From sequence record PZ171032.1: 64,000 bases of DNA, one strand, 5' to 3'. The DNA comes from a phage. Position numbers and translations under genes: made by a program. The notes under the pieces were generated by a model. That model saw nothing but the letters and a program-made list of their open reading frames with translations. It ran no database searches and was not told the origin of the DNA. This document shows, piece by piece, positions 6,389-60,557 of the stretch; positions within the stretch are counted from its first letter, which is position 1; each line of letters begins with the position of its first letter.

Positions 6389-6652
6389 ATGAACATCCTG
6401 ATGTGGGTTATAGCAGTGGCGTTTGTTGCATGTTTTTGCTGCTGGGTTGTGGTGAGGATTTCTGTAGCTACCCTTCGGAAGTTGGGGTTCTCAGAATGGG
6501 ATATTAATATCCTTTCTTTTCGCAATGAAACAATCTCAGCCGCCCTGCTTTGTAAGAAATTTAAGTGGGAACCTTGTGAGGTCATGAGCTATCTAAGAAC
6601 AGGCGATATCCCTGAAAGATTTAAAAAAGTTCTTGACGGCAAGGATAAATGA
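6389..6652 (+). CDS. hypothetical membrane protein
   Basis: GTGAGGTG RBS; N-terminal TM helix WVIAVAFVACFCCWVVV. Confidence 0.6.
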   Translation: MNILMWVIAVAFVACFCCWVVVRISVATLRKLGFSEWDINILSFRNETISAALLCKKFKWEPCEVMSYLRTGDIPERFKKVLDGKDK

Positions 6653-12653: not shown

Positions 12654-12921
12654 GGTTAACGGTTCACGTAAGTTTTCCCGTTTACGGTTATCGGCAGATC
12701 CTCCAGGTCTGGATCTTCTTTAAGGTCGCGAGCAAGTTCACCGCACCGAACGCCCTCGAATCCGTAGTACTCTGTCGTGCCATCCTGGAAAGTTTTAGCG
12801 GCAAGGCATAGGCGATAAGTAACACCGATTTGATTGACGGCATGGATATCAGTTAGATCTACCTCTTTTGCCAGCTTTTTGGCGCTTACAGGGCCAACCA
12901 GGGGCGCTATTCGTAGGATAG

Positions 12922-12958: not shown

Positions 12959-13156
12959 TTATTTGTCTTTATGGCGGTATCGTTCTGCCTGTCGTTCACG
13001 TTCCAAAAGTAGGCCGGGCAATTTACGATCATAATGGTTACGCCAGATCTTCCCAAACCTTTTTGGCTTATTCAGTTTATTGTTACGCTGGCGGCGTTCT
13101 GGCAGCTCTTCGGAATCATGAGGGCGCTTTACAATTTTCTCGAAATTAATTTTCAT
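12959..13156 (-). CDS. hypothetical highly basic small protein
   Basis: ATG at 13156 preceded by AAGGGGGG RBS (track start 13180 is upstream non-ATG); Arg/Lys-rich. Confidence 0.55.
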   Translation of the reverse strand: MKINFEKIVKRPHDSEELPERRQRNNKLNKPKRFGKIWRNHYDRKLPGLLLERERQAERYRHKDK

Positions 13157-13517
13157 ATATTCCCCCCTTACTGATCTCAATATTTGCCTGAATCGCCCGG
13201 ATACGGCGCTTTATAACTTCCTGATCTGTGTGGTCGTATCCCCAAAAGTCCACAATTTTTGCGCCCCCCGCCTCCAGGCGGTATAGTGTTTCCTGCATTT
13301 TGTAAGCCGGGATCGGTCGCGGTGTTACTTGGTCACCTTCTTTATTTTTATACTTTATAATATAATCTTCGTTATCGTTGAATGTCCAAAATGGATATTC
13401 TGCAAGGGCGGCACTTCCTCTTTCCTTTTTGTCCTGGATCTTATTTACAATTAAAGCCGTAGCAATAGCGCCAATAATAAAACTTGCCCCGCTGATCATG
13501 TTACTTTCTCCTTTCAT
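13146..13517 (-). CDS. hypothetical membrane-anchored protein
   Basis: N-terminal TM helix ISGASFIIGAIATALIV; AAGGAGA RBS. Confidence 0.6.
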   Translation of the reverse strand: MKGESNMISGASFIIGAIATALIVNKIQDKKERGSAALAEYPFWTFNDNEDYIIKYKNKEGDQVTPRPIPAYKMQETLYRLEAGGAKIVDFWGYDHTDQEVIKRRIRAIQANIEISKGGIYEN

Positions 13518-16943: not shown

Positions 16944-17276
16944 TCAGGCTCCCAGTGTGTTCTTTCCTTTATACAACCGTAAGGGTATAGTTTTTGTAAC
17001 AGTCCATCTCCCCAGCCCTTCCCAGTTCCAGTTGTAGGCATGGTACCCGGTTACGCATGCACTGCTGGAGTGATCATAGGCATAAGAGAACGCTATACGC
17101 ACCAAATGAAACCAGTCTTTCCACGGTTGTGGTCCGTAAGCTTTTCTCCAACACCGACACAAGCTAAATGTCTCAAGAATAGGCAGGATAACAAATCCAT
17201 ACACCGCCACCAGAATAGCCAACGCAATGATTGTCAGGAATACATACCCTGCAGTTGAAACGATGATCTCTGTCAT
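16944..17276 (-). CDS. hypothetical membrane protein
   Basis: two predicted TM helices (VFLTIIALAILVAVYGFVILPIL). Confidence 0.55.
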   Translation of the reverse strand: MTEIIVSTAGYVFLTIIALAILVAVYGFVILPILETFSLCRCWRKAYGPQPWKDWFHLVRIAFSYAYDHSSSACVTGYHAYNWNWEGLGRWTVTKTIPLRLYKGKNTLGA

Positions 17277-20486: not shown

Positions 20487-21110
20487 CTAAAAGTATTCAT
20501 AGAGGTATCCATCGGGAGCTGGAATTTTTTCATGAATGTAGTAATCAACACATATTCCGGTTTCTCTTCTACAAGAGTTGTGGGATACCCATTCTTTAAG
20601 AATGTTGCCATTCATGTCCAGCCTCCTTACATTTTTACACCGTCTACCGCTGGTGCTTCTATGCAACAGAATATCCTCCGTCTGCTTGTCTTTATTTTCT
20701 CCCCAGGTCGTTAAACGGATATTATCAAAAGAGTACCCTTTGAAATCATCTATCCTGTCACAAGAAGGCTTTTTCCTTTTGTCGTATCCGCTGGCTACCC
20801 ACTGATCATACAACTCTTTGTAACCGTTTAGGTATAGCCACTCCTTAAACTCTTTTTTGGTGTAAGTCGGAGGAGGGTGACCTCTTTGCTTGCTGTTGCA
20901 CTTTTGAGACTTGTACAGCACGCGTATTACACCTTTTTCTGAAGAGTCGTGGGAAAACTGGTCAGCCTCTCTGCTGGCCTTCTTACAGCACTCTTTGCAC
21001 TTATTAAGATGACCGTCAGCCATCTTTGGATGTTTGTAAAACTCGGAGAGGTTTTTCACCTCTCCGCACTTGATGCACCTCTTACAATGCGTAGATTCTA
21101 CTTTTACCAT
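20487..21110 (-). CDS. Cys-rich zinc-finger protein (CxxC...H...CxxC; possible HNH-like nuclease or DNA-binding regulator)
   Basis: [36 protein letters not shown] treble-clef-like motif at N-terminus. Confidence 0.55.
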
Positions 21111-25897: not shown

Positions 25898-26739
25898 CAA
25901 TAGTTCAGGTAGGTCGTTAAGCTACCCCGCACCATTACGTGCACAGCCATACAGTTTCCTGTATGGATCGGACTATCTCACTACCTTGTTACCAAGGCAC
26001 CTCCCATTTCGACCGCACTTGCTGGCCTACTCTACTCGCTTCTTCGCACCAATTTATGTTGGCGCTATGCTTTCGATAGTCTCTGAACGTTACTACCAGG
26101 TGTAGTTTTTAGAGATATGTTTCCACTGTCTTCTTTGCTTTATGGCTCTGACCGTCTCATAAGGATACCCAAGATCCCTAATCTCGCATTGTCGTAAACC
26201 ACTTTGTAACAGTTCGCAAATCTCCGTTACCTCATCCTCGGTCAGTACAGCGTTGGCATTATACTCACCGACTGGCCTTACTCTGAGGTCATTATCATAA
26301 GCGTGTTTGATATTTCCACCAGGGGTGGTCCATTCAAGGTTCCAGTATGCATTGTTGTATTTGTTTCCGTCCTTATGGTTCACCCATGTGAGCCTTTCAG
26401 GATCAGGGTTTGATACAAAGCATTCAGCAACCAAGTGGTGGACACCTTTTGTGCACTGCTTCCCCTCGATGAACATGGTTACGCAAAGGTAACCTCGACC
26501 ATTATCAAAACAGAACATTGTTGTATGATCACGTTTCGATAAAGGTATTGTTCCATCATCAAACACGGTATATCCGTGATAATCAACTGATCTAGCCATT
26601 TTAACTACACCCCTTTAGTCTTCGCTGCGGATTAGCATATTGAGCTTTTACCATGTTTAGGTGTAAAAGTCAACTTAGCCTTCCCGTCAATTAAAGAGGT
26701 TTTCGACGTGCATCACTGCACGAAGCCACAATGTTATTT
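25898..26739 (-). mobile_element. putative group I intron (842 nt) carrying an HNH homing endonuclease ORF, inserted in motif C of the DNA polymerase gene
   Basis: exon 1 ends CAU (U at -1), intron ends with G, joining restores Y-Y-H-D-E; GNRA-capped hairpin CCATACAG-GAAA-CTGTATGG at about 25947-25966; HNH ORF in separate frame. Confidence 0.6.
26093..26599 (-). CDS. HNH homing endonuclease
   Basis: HHLVAECFVSNPDPERLTWVNHKDGNKYNNAYWNLEW matches the phage HNH_3-type motif (H-x-V-x-E ... VNH-x-DGNK-x-NN ... NLEW). Confidence 0.8.
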   Translation of the reverse strand: MARSVDYHGYTVFDDGTIPLSKRDHTTMFCFDNGRGYLCVTMFIEGKQCTKGVHHLVAECFVSNPDPERLTWVNHKDGNKYNNAYWNLEWTTPGGNIKHAYDNDLRVRPVGEYNANAVLTEDEVTEICELLQSGLRQCEIRDLGYPYETVRAIKQRRQWKHISKNYTW

Positions 26740-29163
26740 ATGGTAATAGATAATACGACGAACACCTTCATCGTACCACCCACGCTTCACCATTTGGTGG
26801 TGCATAAGTATCCCAACTAAGTCACACAGCGATGCACCACCATTCTGTTGGTATGCATTAAGTAAAGAGTGTTTAGATCGGGTCCAGATGGCATGACCAT
26901 CAAAAGAGTAGATAAACTTCTTACCCGTTGCTTCCCAGAATTTCTCCAGATCCTCTTTACGCCCCTTAAGACCAGGGTTGGCATCCCAAAGTGCATCGAT
27001 CACCCTTTGTCCCAACTCTGGAGAGATGTCCAGCATATCTGCAACTTTATCTTTTTGTGCCCCGTACATAACCCCATACGTGATAGGTTTACCGTCGTTA
27101 CGAGACACCTCTCTGCCTGCTACTTTTGTATATGCCTCAGCATTGTTTTGGTGTGCGTCCCCGTTACTTACAACATCATAATACAAGCCGTTGTCGAACT
27201 CAAAGGCACCCCAAGCCCCGATAAGCTGCTCTAAGTTGGACCCGTCAATACCGATCTCAAAGTATCCTGGAGGAACACCCCACAGACTACGCATCTCTTT
27301 ACCCATAACCACTTTAGGAGATGGTTTAGGCATGTTTGCACAAATACTGTGTTTCTGTCTGGAAGTGTTTGTTAATCCAGAGCTTTTAGCAGGAAGCTTA
27401 TGGTCAATCTTCAAACGTGGGTGATTAAGAAGACCAGTATCAACCTTATCCTCCTTAATTGGATCAAGGACCGATCTGCGGTTTCGCAATGATAACCACA
27501 AGACGATATCTTTAGCCATCTCTCCGTTCAATTTTTCAAGATTCGGACATAGGTGTCCAAACGTATCTTTCAGTTGCGGAGAAGTAATAAGTGCTCTGGC
27601 TTTTCTACGTATTTTCCCGAATACTTCCTTTTTAATCCTTTCGGAGTTAGGAAAGCTTCGGAACTTGTGCACGGTTGTCTGGAACTTAGCATCAGTTTTG
27701 TTCCAGAAGTTGATAATCAGGTCACAATACTCTGACTCTAAAAGCTCGTCCATATATGCATATACTCGTGCATCAACATCTGCATCAGGTAGAGCTTTCT
27801 TCTTGCTGTCTTTAGTTACATCCTTAGTTCTCCACATTGTCGGAAGCCAACCAGCACTGATCAGGTATCGCTTAATATCGTCCTGATTGCTGATTTTCAT
27901 AGGTATCTTGCAGTCAGGCATTCGCTTCTGCTGCAGATCGCTTATTGCCTGATCCATCAGCTCTTTAGGTAAAGGTTGTGGTGTGGAGGTGCCCTTAATA
28001 TAACCTCTCAAGAAATCAGCCATCTTGTCTGGGTCTTTGCAGCCCATCTCTTCACACCATTTTATCCCCATTTTACTGACATCTCCTGTGGAGGTAAATG
28101 CTCGCTTAGGTGGGGCTTTGAACTCTAAAGCGCTCATGTCTACAGGATAGCCAAGCTTATCTTTTAACCATTTCCAACCATTATTGGAGATTGTCCCATC
28201 TTGGTTAAACGGCTTTTCAGGGAACTTGGGCCGCTGAGACATTGACAGCTCTTTTAAAGGTAGTTGTGGTTCAACACGATCAGCTATTTCTTTCATCCAC
28301 GCATCGCAACGGTCACGTAAAGCAATAGCCCCGTCTATGTCGAAATACACACCCTGACGGGCCTGCAGCTCCATCAGGAAGTGCTGCAGCATGCCTCGGC
28401 GTAATGCGTTCTTCCAGGTGATCTTCTTGAACCCTTTTGGCTTCTCTTTGGCAGGATCGTACATAAAGTTCTGCATGTCAGATTTGCCGTAGAATACACC
28501 TTTTGATTCCGCTACCAGCTCTTTCCAGAGCAGCTCCTGGATGATAACGTCCTCGAATACACGATCCACATACTTCCACAGCGGAAGATCGCGCCAGTCA
28601 TCAATTTGAACTTTCTGGTTACCAAGAGCGTAGCCCCATGCCATAAGGCCGTGAGGACCAACAGGCTGCATTTTCTTAGTAACCGGGTTGAATACAGAGT
28701 CCGGACAACCTTTTGGTAAAGGGCGATCAGGCCACAAGATTCGGCTCATCGCCAACGTATCGAACAGGTTAACCTGGTGGTCGTTGATAGTCCCCATACA
28801 TTTAGGATCACGGAACATATCAAAATGAATACCGGATAATCTCTCCATCAGCATAAAGTCATAACTGTAGCAGTTATGGCAGTTCAAAGCTGTTGGTGAC
28901 CAGTCGGAATTTCCTGTAAGCCAACCTTCCAACTCCGAAAAATCTGCTATGCGAACTTCAAAATCTTTATAAAGAGTTTTCTTTGCCAGAATAAAGTTCT
29001 TAGCCTTCTCTATATCCTCCTCGGAGTAGTGTGTGCGGTCATTTAGAGGAAGGAACAGCATAAAACGGTTCTTATTCAGCTCTTTAAACAGGCCGCAATG
29101 ATAATAAAGATCTGGGTCTTCCAGCAAACCGGATGACTCAAAATCGAACGACCACATGCTCAT
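26740..29163 (-). CDS. family A DNA polymerase (T7 gp5 / Pol I-like), exon 1 with 3'-5' exonuclease and polymerase motifs A and B
   Basis: Exo I FDFESSG; motif A IGIDGSNLEQL; motif B RNDGKPITYGVMYGAQ; ORF stops at ...IIYYH-K* exactly where motif C HDE is expected. Confidence 0.85.
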
Positions 29164-35046: not shown

Positions 35047-36413
35047 ACGTCCCCCTCTTCGGCTCTGGTTTCAAAATCTTTCCTGACAATTTTGTCTAAG
35101 TCAGGGAATGTTGTATTGTAAAACTCTACGACTCGCGGGTCAACAATAATGTCAACTTCTCTTAGTGGACGCAACAAGTTTATTCCTTGTATTGTCTTAA
35201 CTCTGCTCAAAGCGACATACGTCATCCCAGGAGAGAAAGCTCCGTTCTTTCCAAGGTCTAGGTTGTAACAATCTAGCGTAAGTCCTTGACTTTTATGAGA
35301 TGTTACGGCGTACCCAGATTTCAGAGGAAGTTGCTTGTATGACCCAATCACTACCCTCTCTATAAACTTCTCCATCTTCCTTTCTGCAATGTTGTATCTC
35401 TGAGATGGCTTATACTCGTTATTCTCCCACAACCTCTGCTCTATGTCAACCTGTGTTCCATCTTCAAGCTCTACCACCACCGCCTTGTTCTTAAATTTAA
35501 CAATTGTGGCACGTGTTCCGTTAACATAATAAGGTACTTTGTGCGTCGGGTCAACATCGTTGGCGGTTATCATAACTTTCATGCCAATTTTCAACTTCAT
35601 CTCCTGCTCAACTGGCAGGGTGGAGGGAAACTTACCCTTCATTTCCCCAGTGTATACCTTCTCCGGGGCGTTGATGGCATCATAGAACCTTCTGTTCACT
35701 TCCTCTGCTTGTTTGTTGGTGGCGCAAATTGTGAGAGCGTCTGTTGGTACACCGCCTTTGTAACAGCGAGCATTAAGTTCTGCTACAACCTCTTTTATGC
35801 GACGACCCTCACGAACACAGTTGAGCATTGTGGCAAATCGAATAGACTCCTGTCGGAACTGATCTATTAGGGCTATGTTGTGGAGGTCAAGCTCTTTCCA
35901 AGATTCGGTATAGCAACACAGGTCTGTATGGTAGAAGTTGAAGTAGGCTTCCTTCTCCATAGAAGAGACAACAGGAGGTGCCTGGTAAAAATCGCCAAAC
36001 AATATGACCTGTATGCCTCCGAAAGGTTTGTCATTTTTTCGAAGGAAGCGAAGTTTCCTATCCATCTCTATAAACTTATCAGCACGGATCATAGAGATTT
36101 CATCGATAATCAGGATGGTAAATGCCTTGCTTTTCAAAGGCTTTGCTGTTTTTGCCCTTATTGCGGTCCAGTCTGACTCCATGCTCACACCTGCTGCAAG
36201 ATCGAAGGTTCGGTGTGCTGTTGCTCCATTAACGTTTAAAGCGGCTACCCCTGTCGGGGCAACCGTTATGCAAGAGTCTCCATACATTGACTGGATCATG
36301 TTGATGAGGTACGTCTTCCCACAACCTGCGGGTCCTGAAACGAAGACATTCTCACCGCTCATGATTGCAACGAGGGCAGCATCTGTGCCTACATCATACT
36401 GCCCTTTTTCCAT
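35043..36413 (-). CDS. Dda / RecD-like SF1 DNA helicase
   Basis: Walker A GPAGCGKTY; motif II IIDEISM; FGDFYQAPPV; motif VSHKSQGLTLD near C-terminus. Confidence 0.85.
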   Translation of the reverse strand: MEKGQYDVGTDAALVAIMSGENVFVSGPAGCGKTYLINMIQSMYGDSCITVAPTGVAALNVNGATAHRTFDLAAGVSMESDWTAIRAKTAKPLKSKAFTILIIDEISMIRADKFIEMDRKLRFLRKNDKPFGGIQVILFGDFYQAPPVVSSMEKEAYFNFYHTDLCCYTESWKELDLHNIALIDQFRQESIRFATMLNCVREGRRIKEVVAELNARCYKGGVPTDALTICATNKQAEEVNRRFYDAINAPEKVYTGEMKGKFPSTLPVEQEMKLKIGMKVMITANDVDPTHKVPYYVNGTRATIVKFKNKAVVVELEDGTQVDIEQRLWENNEYKPSQRYNIAERKMEKFIERVVIGSYKQLPLKSGYAVTSHKSQGLTLDCYNLDLGKNGAFSPGMTYVALSRVKTIQGINLLRPLREVDIIVDPRVVEFYNTTFPDLDKIVRKDFETRAEEGDV

Positions 36414-36691
36414 TACGCCTCCTCGTAAAGAATGTCGATAGTGTTACCGTCTCGGTCAACCACGTATTCAATCGGGTCTCCGTCCTTGCGTGCTTCCGGA
36501 GCTACCACAATCTCATAGCGGCATGCACGGCACTTAGCGCTATTGTGTTGGTATGGCACACTAACCACATCTGCAGGGTCAACCATGACAGTCATTACAG
36601 TGCCGTAGCTCTTCGCATACTCTTTGCTGGCGCAGTGTAAGCCATAGGAGCACGCAGCTTCAGGATCATCCTCTACAAAGTTACGAGGCAT
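36413..36691 (-). CDS. hypothetical protein (start uncertain; frame overlaps 3' end of upstream gene)
   Basis: track ORF starts at TTG 36778 overlapping upstream gene by about 100 nt in another frame; first in-frame ATG at 36691. Confidence 0.4.
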   Translation of the reverse strand: MPRNFVEDDPEAACSYGLHCASKEYAKSYGTVMTVMVDPADVVSVPYQHNSAKCRACRYEIVVAPEARKDGDPIEYVVDRDGNTIDILYEEA

Positions 36692-37617
36692 GGATACAAA
36701 AGCACCTTGGTATTGTGGGACTTTACCACTGTGCCAATCCACCCACTTGCTACCGTTAAACTGAACCCTTTGTAGCAAATGATTCGACCATCTTCTGCAA
36801 TCTGAATATCATTGGCCTGCATAAAATCGTAGAGCATGTTTACAGATTTTGCAGAAGGATTGCGTAGCAGGCGAACGAGGAATTTCACATAGCGGTCATC
36901 CAGCGTTCCGTCTGCATAATCTTTCTCAATTTTCTTTGCAATGGTGGATCGCATCTCTACACCGTAGTAGTAGAGCTTACCATCTTTCATGATCAGGTTG
37001 TCTGCAAGTGTGGTGAACTCATTCTTGCGTTCCAGCCAGACAAGGATTTCACCAATTGCCTCGTCATATTCCTGAACAGAGATATGGTCGAAGACTTTCT
37101 GGTAAACTTCCTCACTTTCGCTGCGGCGAATTTCAAAAATGCCTTCGTTGCAGGTGATCTGGAGGAGTTCCCCACAAATAACTACCAAAGGCTCGATGCT
37201 TCGAGTTTGTTGCTGAGACACACTGCTCACCACCTCCAGCACCGGATCTTTGACTTCTACTAAAGGTTCTTCTGACTTGATTGCCACCCCAGTGAACCCC
37301 ACACCGTGAACAACACACAGTGGGTATACCACGCCCCAACGTTTAACGGAACCTTCGCCTAAGTCTAAGATCATGGCGTACTTACCATTATCTTCCAATC
37401 CATAGCGGAATAAACGGGCCTCTTCGCGGGTTTCAAAATCCTCACGGGTGTAGCAGACGCTGTCACGGTCAGGATCGAACAACTCTGGGGCACCCACTGC
37501 CAGTGTCCAGGTTGTGTCGCCTTTCTCAATGGCACATGTGAAACCCTTCTTCTCAAGTTCTGCACGGCGGTCTCGTGCTTCTTTACGGGTTTTGAAATGT
37601 TCGTAGATGAAAATCAT
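36673..37617 (-). CDS. hypothetical protein with two N-terminal about 40-aa repeats
   Basis: repeated module (YEHFKTRKEARDRRAELEKKGF... / YTREDFETREEARLFRYGLEDNGKY...). Confidence 0.55.
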   Translation of the reverse strand: MIFIYEHFKTRKEARDRRAELEKKGFTCAIEKGDTTWTLAVGAPELFDPDRDSVCYTREDFETREEARLFRYGLEDNGKYAMILDLGEGSVKRWGVVYPLCVVHGVGFTGVAIKSEEPLVEVKDPVLEVVSSVSQQQTRSIEPLVVICGELLQITCNEGIFEIRRSESEEVYQKVFDHISVQEYDEAIGEILVWLERKNEFTTLADNLIMKDGKLYYYGVEMRSTIAKKIEKDYADGTLDDRYVKFLVRLLRNPSAKSVNMLYDFMQANDIQIAEDGRIICYKGFSLTVASGWIGTVVKSHNTKVLLYPCLVTL

Positions 37618-37627
37618 CTTGGTCTCC

Positions 37628-39610
37628 TTATTTGATGTTATTCTTTGTATCGATCAGTTCACGGTATTCAATCATAGCAGGAGTGTCCCAATATTTCAAG
37701 CCCACATGCTTCAAAAGTGGATATTTCTTTTCCAATCTTGCAATATAGGCCTTTCCGCACTTAACCCGGTTGGCGATTAAGATTTTGGCACGATGATTTA
37801 GCTCACTGTGCTTCCACGCGGTGTTACCTTCCCACTTGTGGAAATGTGGCCGATAATTTCCAAAATCCTGCATGGGGATAATTTTCCCTAATTGTCTATA
37901 CAGGCTGTCATATGAAGTTTCATTTGCTGCGCGAGTCAGTAAGAATTTCCAGGCGTCCTCTTTCAACAAATGTTCCACATTTTTCTCTGTAACATACTGG
38001 CAATCAGGATCAGTCCAAAGCAGACGGGATTCTGATACCAGGTACAGGTCTTCCCCTTCAGGAATCTGGAGTGCCGCACGCACACGGTCATAATTTTGCT
38101 GGTAGATGTTACTCAGCTGTCCCAGCCAACAACTTCCACGTTGGATATCGCCCTCATAAGGAATGCAGTGCTTAATCTTCTTGAACTCTGCCTTAGTAAT
38201 ACGTTCACGACGGAAGTAACCATCCTTCTCAAGCTTTTTAACCCAATAACCTGGCTCGTAATGAGTTTTTGTTTCACCTTTCTTCGCAGGTCGGCGAGGG
38301 AGCTCTGATAACAATTTGACCGTATCTGCAAAGAACGGGTGGTGTGCCGCTTCTTTAAACTCTTCCACCAAATCCGTGTTACGGCAATAGAAAACGTTGC
38401 GTCCGGTGATCTCGCTTAAGTAGTTACACTTATTTCGGTTATATTTGCCGTCTCCGTCGTTAAACACTAAGTAGACCCCTCGTAAGAACTCCGACTTTCC
38501 GTAGCAGGCGTAACCTATGCGGCCTTTATTTAAGCCGCCAGCGAAGATCTCACAATCTCCCAAACTTCCTAGTCCTGTCTCTTCCCATCGGTCCCACATA
38601 AAATTCTTACCGAAGATGTGCCCGAACACTCCACTGTTCTTCATCATCTCACGTGCTTCTGAGGATGTTTTTGCTGTCTCCAATTCCGCAACAACTTCTG
38701 CCCCACGAAGACGGATACCCTCTTTGACAAAAGCCTCCAACCGCTCTTGGAATCCACCATCGTCGTGCCCCTCTATGGTCCATTCGCGCCCAGGGTTAAT
38801 ATTGCAATCCCCAATAGGGATCTCTACACAGATTGCAGGGTAGTCTGTCAATGTTTCCAGAAACTTAGAGCGGTAAGGTTGGTGTCCCATCACCACACGG
38901 CTCTCATCAGAGCTGGTATAACCTTTCAGGATAGTCATTTTCCAACCATCTTTCTCGTAGCGATACTGCGCCTCAACCTTGTCACCTTCCAGCATCTTAC
39001 TGGTCATAGGGTCGGTAACGGTAAACGGAAACTTTGCATAGCGTAGGCATGACGCAATAGCAGTGCGATATTTCAGAATATGCTCTTTCTTAACATGGAA
39101 CTGAACTTTTACCCCGTTGTGCTCTTCAGTCTTTCGCTCGCGGATCTTGGTAACGTTTGGGATACCCTGATCCAAGAACAATAGATATGTGCTTTCAACA
39201 CCATTGTGTACACTGATCACATCGAAAGTGTCCACCATGCTGAACGGGGCCTTTGAACCAACACCTTTATTACCCACCAGAGCGTTGCTGTTGCGCTTGG
39301 TTGACTCTCCGAGGTTCATGAAAGTGTTGCGGACCATCTCTTCTGACATGCCTAATCCAACGTCCTGCACAAAGAAGTATGGTTCAAGGTCTGTAGGAGA
39401 GTGAATGATGATCGGTACATCGCCCCGTCCAGACTCAACATGAGAGTCCACAGCATTGAAGATTGGTTCACGGCAGCTTGCCAGCACCTTATCTTCGTAA
39501 ATCCCTTTAATGATTAGCCCAAAAGTCTCTTTGTTCAGAGAAATTGAGCCCCTGGTGACCTCCATATTTCCAGTTAGCACTGCTTTAGTTTCATTACTGT
39601 TTACAATCAT
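37628..39610 (-). CDS. GHKL-superfamily ATPase (Bergerat fold; Hsp90/MORC-like N-terminal domain) with about 450-aa C-terminal region of unknown function
   Basis: N-box EPIFNAVDSH, G1-box VQDVGLGM, G2-box GNKGVGSKAPF in correct order and spacing within the first about 130 aa. Confidence 0.6.
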   Translation of the reverse strand: MIVNSNETKAVLTGNMEVTRGSISLNKETFGLIIKGIYEDKVLASCREPIFNAVDSHVESGRGDVPIIIHSPTDLEPYFFVQDVGLGMSEEMVRNTFMNLGESTKRNSNALVGNKGVGSKAPFSMVDTFDVISVHNGVESTYLLFLDQGIPNVTKIRERKTEEHNGVKVQFHVKKEHILKYRTAIASCLRYAKFPFTVTDPMTSKMLEGDKVEAQYRYEKDGWKMTILKGYTSSDESRVVMGHQPYRSKFLETLTDYPAICVEIPIGDCNINPGREWTIEGHDDGGFQERLEAFVKEGIRLRGAEVVAELETAKTSSEAREMMKNSGVFGHIFGKNFMWDRWEETGLGSLGDCEIFAGGLNKGRIGYACYGKSEFLRGVYLVFNDGDGKYNRNKCNYLSEITGRNVFYCRNTDLVEEFKEAAHHPFFADTVKLLSELPRRPAKKGETKTHYEPGYWVKKLEKDGYFRRERITKAEFKKIKHCIPYEGDIQRGSCWLGQLSNIYQQNYDRVRAALQIPEGEDLYLVSESRLLWTDPDCQYVTEKNVEHLLKEDAWKFLLTRAANETSYDSLYRQLGKIIPMQDFGNYRPHFHKWEGNTAWKHSELNHRAKILIANRVKCGKAYIARLEKKYPLLKHVGLKYWDTPAMIEYRELIDTKNNIK

Positions 39611-40107
39611 TTATTGCGCTCCTTGTAGTAGATATGACTCCCGAATTGAGCTGTCCTCTGCATCTTTTTTGCCCATTTCGGTCGTACTTTGGTCGTATGG
39701 TAGTGTGTTGCTCCACCTGTTATATCCATAGCCATGTATGCAACATGGTTGTTATTATAGACCTTTAGAAGCATCTTTGCAAGACTTTTAGCGTGATCCC
39801 ATGAATCTTTTTCTGTCACCTTAAAAGTTTTGCCGTAGTTTGTCCACGAAAACTGATTAGGTTGGTAGACAATCTTTCTTATAGTGTCCGGGTATTTGGG
39901 ATGAGATTTCCTGTTTAGGGTGGCAAACCCAGATGCCAGCATACCCATCGTGCCATCCCCTCTAGCTTCCCTGTAGATATTGCATGCTAGAATGTTTTCC
40001 TTAGTATCTGATGGCTTGCAAGTATGGTATACTTTTTGTTTTGGTGCTGCAACAACAGGCAGCGATAAAAATGCGCTCAAAATAATAGCAAAGATCTTAA
40101 TTTTCAC
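39607..40107 (-). CDS. SleB-like cell wall hydrolase with cleavable signal peptide (endolysin candidate)
   Basis: N-terminal signal peptide MKIKIFAIILSAFLSLPVVA; hydrolase_2 motifs NIYREARGD and VYQPNQFSWTN. Confidence 0.7.
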   Translation of the reverse strand: MKIKIFAIILSAFLSLPVVAAPKQKVYHTCKPSDTKENILACNIYREARGDGTMGMLASGFATLNRKSHPKYPDTIRKIVYQPNQFSWTNYGKTFKVTEKDSWDHAKSLAKMLLKVYNNNHVAYMAMDITGGATHYHTTKVRPKWAKKMQRTAQFGSHIYYKERNK

Positions 40108-40156
40108 AATGACTCCAAATAGAAAATCCCCGCCGAAGCGGGGGAGGTCTTAGAAA

Positions 40157-40537
40157 TTAATCGTAGTGTGCCAAAATCTCTCCATCGTTGCAAGTTCCCT
40201 CTACAAAGTTATGAAGATTCATGCACTCATCTTGATAGAAGAATTTACCGCTTTTCAGCCGTAGGCCAAACAACTCCGCATCTCCACGATGGCAAGCCTC
40301 TACAAGTTCATAGATTTCATACGGCAACTCTCCGTCGTCATGGAAGAATCCAGCCTTATCGTTGACATAAATGAAGAAATAATCACTGCTATCGCAAGCG
40401 TCCAATATTTTAAACCAGATTTCATCTACATCTTTTTCTCGGATATCGATCACGCAAGTGGAGCTGCATTCGTACTCCTTCTCCGGCTCCTCGGTCAATA
40501 CCACCAGGTAGTTTCCCCGCTTACCTACTTTAGCCAT
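40157..40537 (-). CDS. hypothetical protein
   Basis: ORF; no motif. Confidence 0.55.
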   Translation of the reverse strand: MAKVGKRGNYLVVLTEEPEKEYECSSTCVIDIREKDVDEIWFKILDACDSSDYFFIYVNDKAGFFHDDGELPYEIYELVEACHRGDAELFGLRLKSGKFFYQDECMNLHNFVEGTCNDGEILAHYD

Positions 40538-40546
40538 ACAACCCCC

Positions 40547-41731
40547 TTAAGCTTTAGCCAAAATGGCGCTAAACTCTTCACCAAACTCTTTTACAATCTT
40601 CATCAGGTTTGGGTATGCTTTGATCAACTGAGCAACAATCTTGTCACGCCCTTTACCGATAAGCAAGGCATTTCCTAAGGCGTTAGGTTTCATCATCGCC
40701 ATAAAGACTGAGAATACAAAATCTCGGTTCTCGTCCTTGAAATTTTCCCAAAGGAAATCGAGGAAGTTTGCCACACAGCTAACAAGATCTTCGTCGGAGA
40801 TACTTGCATTTTCCATCATATTGCGAATAGCGATACAACCTTCAGATCCAAGAATCCACAAAATGTCTGGCTGCTTAGGACCTACGTATTCTTTGCAGCC
40901 ACCTGCCATAATCCGACCGATTTCCGGTAAATTACGTTTCTTGGTGTGGTAAGTCCAGATCTCTACCGCTGCAGTGTGACCAATAGCACCTTGTAGAAGA
41001 ACACGGGCCATAGCGTCAGAAATAATACCGCTGTCAAAATCGTGCAAGATGTCAGATGCAGCAACCCAAGATCGCGGTGTGGCAAAAGATGGACAATTAA
41101 TCTCAGCCATAGCCTCATAATTATCAATAGCTGAGGGAACTCTTTTCAAATATCCAATTACAGAGGAATGCACCCCATTAAGGAATGCGTAGTCCTCAAT
41201 AAACACCTCTGCATTGCTTGTAACCTCTACAATGATAAAACGGTTAGCCAGAGGGGCTTCGAGCGCCGAAAGAACCGCACCATCTGTAGAACGGTTACCC
41301 GCAGCCACAAAAACAGAACCCTTAGGGAATGCATAGGTGCCGCACTTGTGGTCAAGCATAATTTGCATTGCAACCTTTTGCAGGTAGTTATCTGCATGAG
41401 TGAGCTCATCCAGAAAGATAATTCCGCTCCAGTCAGGATCCGCAGGCCAAAATTCTGGAATTGCAAACACTGTACGTGTAGTTCCATCCGCTTCTACAGG
41501 GATAGGTAGCCCAGATAAGTCGGCAGGATCTTTATCTGACAGTCGCACGTCAACAAGGTTGTCATCTCGCTCACCGAACATATTATCAGCGATCTGCTTC
41601 ATCACCTGGCTTTTACCCACACCCATTGGTCCCAAAATTAGGACAGATCGGCTATGACGTTGGGCAAACTGAATAATAGCTGGCAACTCACGGACAGTGA
41701 TTTGACCACTTTCGAATACGTTTCTTGACAT
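40547..41731 (-). CDS. MoxR/CbbQ-like AAA+ ATPase
   Basis: Walker A LILGPMGVGKS; Walker B IIFLDELTHAD; sensor-1-like VFVAAGN. Confidence 0.75.
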   Translation of the reverse strand: MSRNVFESGQITVRELPAIIQFAQRHSRSVLILGPMGVGKSQVMKQIADNMFGERDDNLVDVRLSDKDPADLSGLPIPVEADGTTRTVFAIPEFWPADPDWSGIIFLDELTHADNYLQKVAMQIMLDHKCGTYAFPKGSVFVAAGNRSTDGAVLSALEAPLANRFIIVEVTSNAEVFIEDYAFLNGVHSSVIGYLKRVPSAIDNYEAMAEINCPSFATPRSWVAASDILHDFDSGIISDAMARVLLQGAIGHTAAVEIWTYHTKKRNLPEIGRIMAGGCKEYVGPKQPDILWILGSEGCIAIRNMMENASISDEDLVSCVANFLDFLWENFKDENRDFVFSVFMAMMKPNALGNALLIGKGRDKIVAQLIKAYPNLMKIVKEFGEEFSAILAKA

Positions 41732-60242: not shown

Positions 60243-60557
60243 TTACCTTTTACTATGCTCTACGAGCATGTGCAAAATCTTTTGTACATCGGCTCTGATG
60301 CCGGAGACATCTGTCCTGACATCCTGCTTAAGGTCGTTAATATCGGCCTCTAGCTTGCTTAACCGGGTCTCTATAACGGAATCAAGTTTATCTTTTGTAA
60401 CCATACTGTTTTTCACTAAGATGAGGTCTTTCTCCAGCTCATCCAACCTCTTGGAAATGCCTTTCCATTTGGTGTGCCACTGGTTGAAAGCCCATACACA
60501 GATCGGGACAACGGTACCCATGCAGATACCGTACAATGCCGCCAAATCCAACTCCAC
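60243..60557 (-). CDS. membrane-anchored protein with charged helical ectodomain
   Basis: single N-terminal TM (LYGICMGTVVPICVWAF) followed by charged heptad-like sequence. Confidence 0.5.
   Translation of the reverse strand: MELDLAALYGICMGTVVPICVWAFNQWHTKWKGISKRLDELEKDLILVKNSMVTKDKLDSVIETRLSKLEADINDLKQDVRTDVSGIRADVQKILHMLVEHSKR

Follow-up and report, generated by a model that had tools for sequence, protein, structure and literature searches.

The 64,000-nucleotide stretch of phage DNA analysed here (the window), which derives from a Vequintavirus (rV5-like), encodes on its minus strand a SleB-like hydrolase that is a dispensable accessory enzyme and not the endolysin of the phage. With a probability of roughly 0.7, we regard the protein as an accessory, Sec-exported SleB/Hydrolase_2 enzyme that would cleave peptidoglycan, is coupled to rIIA and does not serve as the lysis enzyme. 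A sequence-only reading had noticed a signal-bearing SleB-like hydrolase at 39607..40107, an observation that is confirmed here; its interpretation, in which a secreted hydrolase could dispense with a holin, act during entry or be a recently acquired host gene, is partly supported overall. The gene itself is already known: more than 100 near-identical genomes list it as "SleB / cell wall hydrolase", and earlier papers report the signal peptide, the location in the replication region and a layout of 'two endolysins, one in the replication module' (PMC7344957, PMC12210895). The gene and its parts are located as follows.

39607..40107, minus strand: coding sequence of the exported SleB-family (Hydrolase_2) peptidoglycan hydrolase, 166 aa, assigned from the open reading frame, Pfam, PHROG and PDB matches, structure and 98-99% identical orthologues.
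40113..40116, minus strand: Shine-Dalgarno sequence GGAG, separated by 5 nt from the hydrolase GTG start, read from the sequence and unchanged in Bas48 and Bas54.
40048..40107, minus strand: Sec-type signal peptide MKIKIFAIILSAFLSLPVVA, codons 1-20, with a cut predicted before A21 by manual analysis of the n-, h- and c-regions and the -3/-1 residues.
39625..39996, minus strand: SleB-type catalytic domain, residues 38-161, supported by Pfam, phmmer against the PDB, the structure match and invariant residues.

The open reading frame has exactly the limits given above and begins with GTG. Its orthologues include rV5 'SleB', bas48_0065, bas54_0065, PVP-SE1 gp243, CB7_83 and CR3_087; the protein is identical to its Bas54 counterpart at 164 of 166 residues (99%), the window copy differing by F13L and Y91H. 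Membership of the SleB/Hydrolase_2 family, as the sequence-only reading had proposed, holds on several lines of evidence. Residues 51-161 match Pfam Hydrolase_2 (PF07486, the SleB-CwlJ catalytic domain) at E=4e-19, with 69.5 bits where the cut-off is 27, and the match spans positions 2-100 of the 100-position profile; PHROG 938 'endolysin' also matches (E=3.6e-27). The only PDB matches obtained with phmmer are the SleB catalytic domains 4F55 and 4FET, whose YGESRG motif aligns to YREARG of the hydrolase; E47 (codon at 39967-39969) is therefore assigned as the catalytic Glu of a Y-x-E-[AS]-R-G motif. E47, R66 and W145 are invariant across 54 homologues. An AlphaFold2 model, built from an alignment that left out the T5 sequence, has a pLDDT of 94.6, and its only structural matches are again 4F55 and 4FET (probability 1.00, target-normalised TM 0.75-0.79).

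These two structures come from Bacillus SleB, a germination-specific spore-cortex lytic transglycosylase that shares the fold and the catalytic Glu motif with the phage hydrolase and is likewise synthesised as a signal-peptide precursor. The two proteins are only 24% identical, the N-terminal peptidoglycan-binding domain of SleB is missing from the phage protein, and SleB operates in germination whereas the phage protein operates in infection. Bacillus SleB needs muramic-delta-lactam, which the E. coli wall does not contain. Because this substrate determinant is absent there, it is an assumption that the hydrolase acts on E. coli peptidoglycan and which bond it would cleave; by analogy with SleB the bond would be that of a lytic transglycosylase. 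We found no enzymatic assay of phage SleB-like members in the literature; one orthologue is described, with data not shown, as toxic to E. coli cells that express it (PMC7344957).

The N-terminus has the anatomy of a Sec (type I) signal peptide, in agreement with the earlier proposal. By manual rules, which are heuristic, it comprises a charged n-region (MKIK, +2), an h-region within the 7-15 residue range (IFAIILSAFLSL, Kyte-Doolittle values up to 2.6 per 11-residue window) and a c-region, PVVA, without a lipobox. V at -3 and A at -1 are small residues, and the cut is therefore predicted between A20 and A21. In the AlphaFold2 model, residues 3-14 form a helix separate from the globular domain. 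An N-terminal hydrophobic segment recurs in 143 of 161 scanned sequences (the query and 160 homologues), so that, judged from sequence, export appears to be the norm for the family; T5.083, the T5 orthologue, likewise begins with a signal peptide, MKAALLLVAALTFSFSSQA, cut before SH. Cysteines in the family occur as covarying pairs, either C30+C42 or C39+C77, a pattern that fits periplasmic disulfides. We infer that the mature enzyme is probably periplasmic. A lipoprotein was discarded because the lipobox is absent, and a SAR endolysin because of the composition of the N-terminus. A SAR domain escapes cleavage and has a high content of Gly, Ala, Ser and Thr; the segment here is strongly hydrophobic at 10 of 17 positions, lacks Gly, carries Pro in its c-region and has a plausible cleavage site.

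The surroundings of the gene are of early or replication type, and its placement inside a replication module, as originally described, is roughly right.

39607..39610, minus strand: ATGA overlap of the hydrolase TGA stop and the rIIA ATG start, read from the sequence and unchanged in Bas48 and Bas54.
37628..39610, minus strand: rIIA, 660 aa, directly downstream of the hydrolase (PHROG 612, E=4.6e-125; annotation in relatives).
36413..37617, minus strand: rIIB, interrupted in the window by the loss of 1 nt from a C-run near 36765.
40118..40143, minus strand: intrinsic-terminator-like hairpin CCCCGCTTCGGCGGGG + ATTTTCTATT between the hypothetical gene and the hydrolase, from a sequence scan, with the hairpin itself at 40128-40143.
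40157..40537, minus strand: conserved hypothetical gene upstream of the hydrolase, 126 aa, PHROG 12370.
40547..41731, minus strand: MoxR-type AAA ATPase, two genes upstream of the hydrolase (Pfam and PHROG profiles, annotation of relatives).

The immediate neighbours of the hydrolase are thus the hypothetical gene and rIIA, and no lysis cassette; further downstream, beyond rIIA and rIIB, lie a helicase, methyltransferases, a primase and DNA polymerase. The 4-nt ATGA overlap implies translational coupling and co-transcription of the hydrolase with rIIA. The hairpin upstream is invariant in three phages and is annotated as a terminator in phage HdK5 (-16.3 kcal/mol). A sigma-70 scan returned 20 sites against 16 expected, none convincingly between the terminator-like hairpin and the hydrolase start, and the strict pattern TTGAC-N16-20-TATAAT occurs at 2 sites, neither of them near that start. 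A literature search yielded no usable transcriptome for Vequintavirus or for the PaP1 homologue. Expression is probably early or middle.

The lysis genes of this phage group lie elsewhere. In near-identical relatives the canonical endolysin is a lambda-R-type lysozyme, missed by a Pfam search and identified by phmmer against the PDB (1AM7, E=1e-56). It is encoded at about 127 kb, some 68 kb from the SleB-like gene and beyond the part of the genome that the window covers, and at least 81 phage records carry it at 90% identity or more. The enzyme is LysECP26, which is muralytic in vitro by experiment (PMC9728275). A tblastn search of the window with the Bas48 endolysin, 'putative holin', glycosidase, baseplate lysin candidates and spanins found no match, in line with the earlier remark that no endolysin/holin pair is evident there; synteny attributes this to endolysin and spanin genes lying beyond the window and to the 'holin' belonging to a 5-kb segment that is missing here. 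The sequence-only reading had named a canonical endolysin/holin cassette elsewhere in the genome as evidence against itself. Most of this contrary evidence exists: endolysin and spanins are both present in the relatives, where the spanins adjoin the terminase. The lysis genes do not form one contiguous cassette.

Transposon sequencing of Bas54 separates the two enzymes. The endolysin bas54_0202 was hit at 0 of 24 TA sites, the i-spanin at 0 of 29 and the o-spanin at 0 of 19, and all three are classed 'Essential'; SleB-like bas54_0065 was hit at 32 of 36 sites and is classed 'Non-essential', as is the annotated 'putative holin' bas54_0115, which is absent from the window. An endolysin is expected to be needed for lysis and plaques, and by these literature data the 99%-identical orthologue of the hydrolase is dispensable. 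The idea that the hydrolase replaces a holin-dependent endolysin is contradicted by this dispensability together with the separate lambda-R-type enzyme. T5.083 has similarly been called 'Not fit' by CRISPRi-ART, its knock-down having no effect on fitness; this class of call includes false negatives. Non-essentiality of the SleB-like gene is equally compatible with roles unrelated to lysis.

Despite its dispensable orthologue, the gene is under purifying selection (dN/dS ~0.04). Orthologues are present in all Vequintavirinae genera (PMC7344957). They are as long as the window hydrolase, carry the signal peptide and likewise precede rIIA or a helicase, at 98-99% identity within Vequintavirus and 40-53% in Seunavirus, Certrevirus and Septuagintavirus. 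Homologues also occur in T5-like, Stephanstirmvirinae and Pakpunavirus phages. T5 T5.083, Stephanstirmvirinae 'alia' gp051, PaP1 gp029 and PA5oct gp447 resemble the window hydrolase in having an N-terminal signal or anchor, a single Hydrolase_2 domain and a place amid early or DNA-metabolism genes; they differ from it in being 35-41% identical, in using the C39+C77-type pair and in not lying beside rII genes. Phage T5 has a separate canonical endolysin that coexists with T5.083, and Phapecoctavirus LNA4 also encodes one alongside a small exported Hydrolase_2 protein.

Taken as an accessory exported enzyme, the hydrolase would carry a cleavable Sec signal peptide when synthesised, reach the periplasm without any holin, fold there probably with a C30-C42 disulfide, and attack the host sacculus by means of the conserved Glu47. 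The gene is co-transcribed with rIIA and rIIB, and translationally coupled to them, in a leftward block that is probably early or middle, and is not expressed as part of a lysis cassette. Host lysis relies on the cytoplasmic lambda-R-type endolysin and the spanins, whose genes lie elsewhere in the genome. The physiological role of the hydrolase may lie in loosening or reshaping the wall from within the periplasm, with a conditional fitness gain that would go unseen on E. coli K-12 in rich medium.

Sister genera suggest a different history, in which the hydrolase is the enzyme half of a second, secretory lysis system whose class II or pinholin-like partner was lost in Vequintavirus, so that the hydrolase would persist there as a redundant auxiliary lysin. 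The SleB-like gene of Septuagintavirus A73 is followed, with an ATGA overlap, by a gene whose 70-aa product has two hydrophobic stretches and ends in a charged C-terminus; the CB7 paper describes the same layout in Certrevirus, with CB7_82 as class II holin candidate, and PcCB7V carries a disrupted version of the small partner. A neighbour with two transmembrane segments is, however, confined to sister genera: neither the window nor 130 kb of Bas48 contains a detectable homologue of the small partner, which belongs to no PHROG family, rIIA takes the downstream place in both Vequintavirus and Seunavirus, and the small proteins are themselves putative holins only. We consider this history doubtful for the present phage.

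A comparably doubtful proposal makes the hydrolase an envelope-directed counter-defence or host-range factor, needed only with certain wall modifications or envelope-acting defences. The gene sits within a run of non-essential accessory genes and is under strong purifying selection though dispensable in the laboratory; T4 rIIA and rIIB counter RexAB, and two genes upstream of the hydrolase lies the conditionally essential MoxR ATPase, whose orthologue bas54_0063 is reportedly needed against the predicted host defence system DS-28 (bioRxiv 10.1101/2025.11.20.689424). Guilt by association is nevertheless the sole argument, and a wall hydrolase that counters a defence system is not known. In one clinical-isolate comparison, insertions in the gene were not depleted (log2FC -0.88, adjusted p = 1).

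That the hydrolase is the real endolysin of the phage, secreted and holin-independent so that no canonical holin/endolysin pair is needed, is highly improbable and, given the Bas54 data, largely refuted. A signal peptide and a muralytic domain do occur in one protein here, many records and the name of PHROG 938 carry the label 'endolysin', the annotated 'putative holin' is both non-essential and missing from the window, and an orthologue is toxic on expression. Sec-dependent, holin-independent muralytic delivery has precedents in Lys44 of Oenococcus phage fOg44 and, with pinholins, in P1 Lyz and phage 21 R, which are sole essential endolysins, holin-adjacent and of other folds. The window hydrolase differs from such exported and SAR endolysins in its strongly hydrophobic N-terminus, its A-x-A-type cleavage site and its dispensability. 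Against the proposal stand the lambda-R-type endolysin, which tolerates zero insertions, is active in vitro and is widespread at high identity, and the many insertions tolerated by the SleB-like gene.

Recent acquisition of a host gene (a moron) without phage-specific function, which had also been suggested, is hardly credible. The family is very large in bacteria, with 11,111 cluster representatives at E<=0.001 in an exhaustive representative search (a word-indexed protein search had found just 10 relatives), and the GC content of the gene lies slightly under the mean of the window. At 0.41 against 0.44 +/- 0.03 that value is nonetheless within 1 sd and unremarkable, the nearest non-identical relatives are merely 39-55% identical, and position and sequence are conserved in four Vequintavirinae genera, with homologues in unrelated virulent phages and a dN/dS of 0.04. 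Least credible of all is a virion-associated lysin for DNA entry, a role that wall hydrolases do fill in phages and that distance from the lysis genes would permit, because virion assembly takes place in the cytoplasm, which the protein leaves under the direction of its signal peptide, so that it cannot be packaged, and further because the gene is non-essential and outside the structural module, these phages have separate baseplate lysin candidates, the CB7 paper, with its 26-protein virion proteome, mentions CB7_83 in its lysis section only, and PA5oct gp447 was undetected in virions.

For phage biology at large these results change little: annotation of the gene is routine, earlier papers have commented on its signal peptide and unusual location, and a genome-wide transposon screen already shows the SleB-like gene to be dispensable and the conventional endolysin essential. 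Database 'endolysin' labels for the SleB-like protein are misleading for anyone who picks endolysins by annotation. Tentatively, and with a probability that we place low, the hydrolase may be either a conditional envelope-directed factor, co-expressed early with rIIA and rIIB and with no part in lysis, or what is left of an ancestral secreted-lysin/pinholin system. In the first case the phage might require it where the host modifies its peptidoglycan or has defence or exclusion systems that act at the envelope; in the second, the ancestral system would still be intact in Certrevirus and Septuagintavirus. Either would explain strong purifying selection on such a gene in many unrelated large virulent phages that also have a separate, essential endolysin. 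An exported SleB-type enzyme of small size is kept under purifying selection, apart from the lysis genes, in rV5-like, T5-like, phAPEC8-like and PAK_P1-like phages and in some jumbo phages, and the reason for keeping it would bear on lysis control in large virulent phages of Gram-negative bacteria.

The product of the SleB-like gene carries the domain and the predicted fold of a SleB-type hydrolase. It matches Pfam Hydrolase_2 at 69.5 bits (cut-off 27) and also PHROG 938, and the only hits of a sequence search among solved structures were the catalytic domains of SleB (4F55 and 4FET), whose catalytic-glutamate motif, YGESRG, aligns to YREARG here and points to E47. An AlphaFold2 model built from an alignment of 54 homologues has a mean pLDDT of 94.6, and a structure search with this model again gave SleB as the sole match (target-normalised TM 0.75–0.79). 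E47, R66 and W145 are invariant across the homologue alignment.

By classical rules the N terminus is a signal peptide, with an n-region of MKIK, an h-region of 12 strongly hydrophobic residues and a Pro-containing c-region in which V occupies −3 and A occupies −1; cleavage is predicted between A20 and A21. Neither a lipobox nor SAR-type Gly/Ser-rich composition is present there. In a crude scan of the query and 160 homologues from an exhaustive search, 143 of 161 sequences have an N-terminal hydrophobic segment, which is signal-peptide-like in 109 of those. Cysteines in the homologues are nearly always paired (22 sequences have C30 and C42, 25 have C39 and C77 and 3 have all four; 3 lack cysteine and 1 has a lone Cys), a pattern that looks like that of disulfide-bonded periplasmic proteins. 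Together, the domain, fold and signal-peptide evidence confirms the sequence-only reading that the gene encodes a SleB-type hydrolase with a signal peptide. The interpretation placed on that observation stands only in part: the identity of the enzyme holds, and the proposals that it is an endolysin substitute, an entry enzyme or a recent host acquisition are not supported.

The gene and the signals around it are as follows.

39607..40107, minus strand: SleB-like gene, a single ORF filling the interval, 166 aa, GTG start
5 nt upstream of the GTG start, minus strand: GGAG sequence
40143..40128, minus strand: G+C-rich hairpin with T-tract, directly before the GGAG

The hairpin is annotated as a terminator in the phage HdK5 record, and promoter scans of the window found no clear promoter for the gene downstream of it. 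We found no Vequintavirus transcriptome in the literature. The gene's stop codon and the start codon of rIIA (PHROG 612, E=4.6e-125), next downstream, share an ATGA overlap. The SleB-like gene also contains, some 150 nt before rIIA begins, a sigma-70-like site (TTGCAA-17-TATAAT, 10/12; 39754-39782, minus strand). It could be an internal rIIA promoter, or the match may be due to chance, as the scan gave 20 sites against 16 expected. Further on, rIIB (36413-37617, minus strand) is broken into ORFs of 314 and 121 aa, against 401 aa in phage Bas48, owing to a single nucleotide missing from a C-run near 36765, which is either a true frameshift or a homopolymer sequencing error; this region is more divergent than its surroundings (~8% mismatches).

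Both the gene and its odd location are already known from the published record. More than 100 Vequintavirus (rV5-like) phages share the 1.7 kb around the gene at 98% identity, their records label it 'cell wall hydrolase', 'SleB' or 'endolysin', and the Certrevirus CB7 paper reports homologues with a signal peptide in every Vequintavirinae genus, toxic upon expression in E. coli (PMC7344957). Annotations of the gene are widespread, and its family is a known one. Apart from a 5-kb deletion and two small insertions, the window runs collinear with Bas48 (CarlMeissner) between ~34.9 kb and 103.3 kb of that genome. The insertions (640 bp and 843 bp) each hold one ORF (20487-21110 and 26093-26599, minus strand) that looks like a homing endonuclease candidate; an HNH-like motif occurs in the second, which adjoins the DNA polymerase gene (26734-29163).

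The SleB-like protein had been proposed to stand in for a canonical endolysin, a role we reject. A 156-aa Bas48 protein at 127.1 kb matches lambda lysozyme 1AM7 (E=1e-56). Its counterpart in an rV5-like phage, LysECP26, lyses Gram-negative cells as a purified enzyme once their outer membrane has been permeabilised (PMC9728275). By tblastn the Bas48 endolysin occurs at ≥90% identity in at least 81 phage records, including vB_EcoM-Pr121LW, whose own SleB-like protein is 99.4% identical to that of the window, and i- and o-spanin genes adjoin terminase in near-identical relatives. Endolysin and spanins have no tblastn match in the window; lying outside it, they were invisible to the sequence-only reading. 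Transposon-insertion sequencing of the Vequintavirus Bas54 (MaxBurger) is decisive. Its locus has the same gene order and lengths, and its SleB-like protein is identical at 164 of 166 residues.

Essentiality in Bas54 (TA sites hit; supplementary data of bioRxiv 10.1101/2025.11.20.689424)
bas54_0202, lambda-type endolysin: 0/24, Essential
bas54_0001, i-spanin: 0/29, Essential
bas54_0002, o-spanin: 0/19, Essential
bas54_0115, 'putative holin': 27/28, Non-essential
bas54_0065, SleB-like gene: 32/36, Non-essential
bas54_0066, rIIA: 90/101, Non-essential
bas54_0067, rIIB: 56/59, Non-essential

Knock-down of the T5 orthologue T5.083, which also has a signal peptide, had no fitness effect in a CRISPRi-ART screen, a method with false negatives.

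At the junction ~12874-12892 the window lacks a 5-kb Bas48 segment (record 84480-89537) that includes the 'putative holin' bas48_0115, which is unlikely to be the true holin because its Bas54 orthologue is non-essential. The gene directly after the tail fibre chaperone (60243-60557, minus strand; PHROG 5345) encodes a 104-aa protein whose N terminus holds a transmembrane segment and whose tail is a coiled coil. Its position recalls that of T4 holin t behind gene 38. The protein may be a candidate holin or serve in fibre assembly, and its orthologue bas54_0037 is essential (1/20 TA sites hit; bioRxiv 10.1101/2025.11.20.689424). Small predicted membrane proteins at 16944-17276 (minus; two transmembrane segments), 13146-13517 (minus) and 6389-6652 (plus), of PHROGs 2531, 12734 and 13956, carry no lysis annotation.

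The SleB-like protein most likely acts in the periplasm as an accessory muralytic enzyme that needs no holin and is produced along with rIIA/rIIB; laboratory growth on K-12 does not require it, yet selection maintains it. Such an enzyme would weaken or remodel the sacculus from the outer side of the membrane. Its ancestry may lie in a secreted-lysin/pinholin pair whose membrane partner, matched by nothing in the window or in 130 kb of Bas48, is missing in Vequintavirus. Septuagintavirus A73 and Certrevirus CB7 have next to the SleB-like gene an ATGA-overlapping gene (A73_74; CB7_82 in the literature) for a 65–70-aa product, which resembles a class II holin or pinholin in its two hydrophobic segments and charged tail. 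Enzyme and small protein together look, in these sister genera, like a lysin paired with such a holin.

L011 4007-4219 (phage A73): two-transmembrane-segment partner, ATGA overlap with the SleB-like gene
L007 4029-4226 (phage PcCB7V): two-transmembrane-segment partner, appears frameshifted

The enzyme may also be an envelope-directed host-range or counter-defence factor, although this is less likely; the reading is suggested by its gene's position in a stretch of accessory genes that are non-essential, among them rIIA/rIIB and a MoxR ATPase with a reported anti-defence role (bioRxiv 10.1101/2025.11.20.689424). This MoxR-type AAA ATPase (40547-41731, minus strand) lies two genes upstream, and its Bas54 orthologue is reported to be conditionally essential (log2FC −7.2; same preprint) in a clinical E. 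coli isolate, against the predicted defence system DS-28. A role in entry is unlikely, as virions are put together in the cytoplasm, out of reach of a protein exported through Sec, the CB7 paper with its 26-protein virion proteome names the orthologue CB7_83 in the lysis section only (PMC7344957), and the PA5oct homologue was undetected in virions.

Recent acquisition from a host likewise fails. Orthologues built the same way are found in Seunavirus (PVP-SE1 gp243, with gp244 and rIIA next in order), Certrevirus, Septuagintavirus, Stephanstirmvirinae, T5-like phages and Pakpunavirus, and in every case their neighbours are early or DNA-metabolism genes. Comparison within Vequintavirus gives 11–12 synonymous differences against 2 non-synonymous (dN/dS ~0.04), and GC content is within 1 standard deviation of the window. 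Exported SleB-like enzymes are conserved across many virulent phage lineages.
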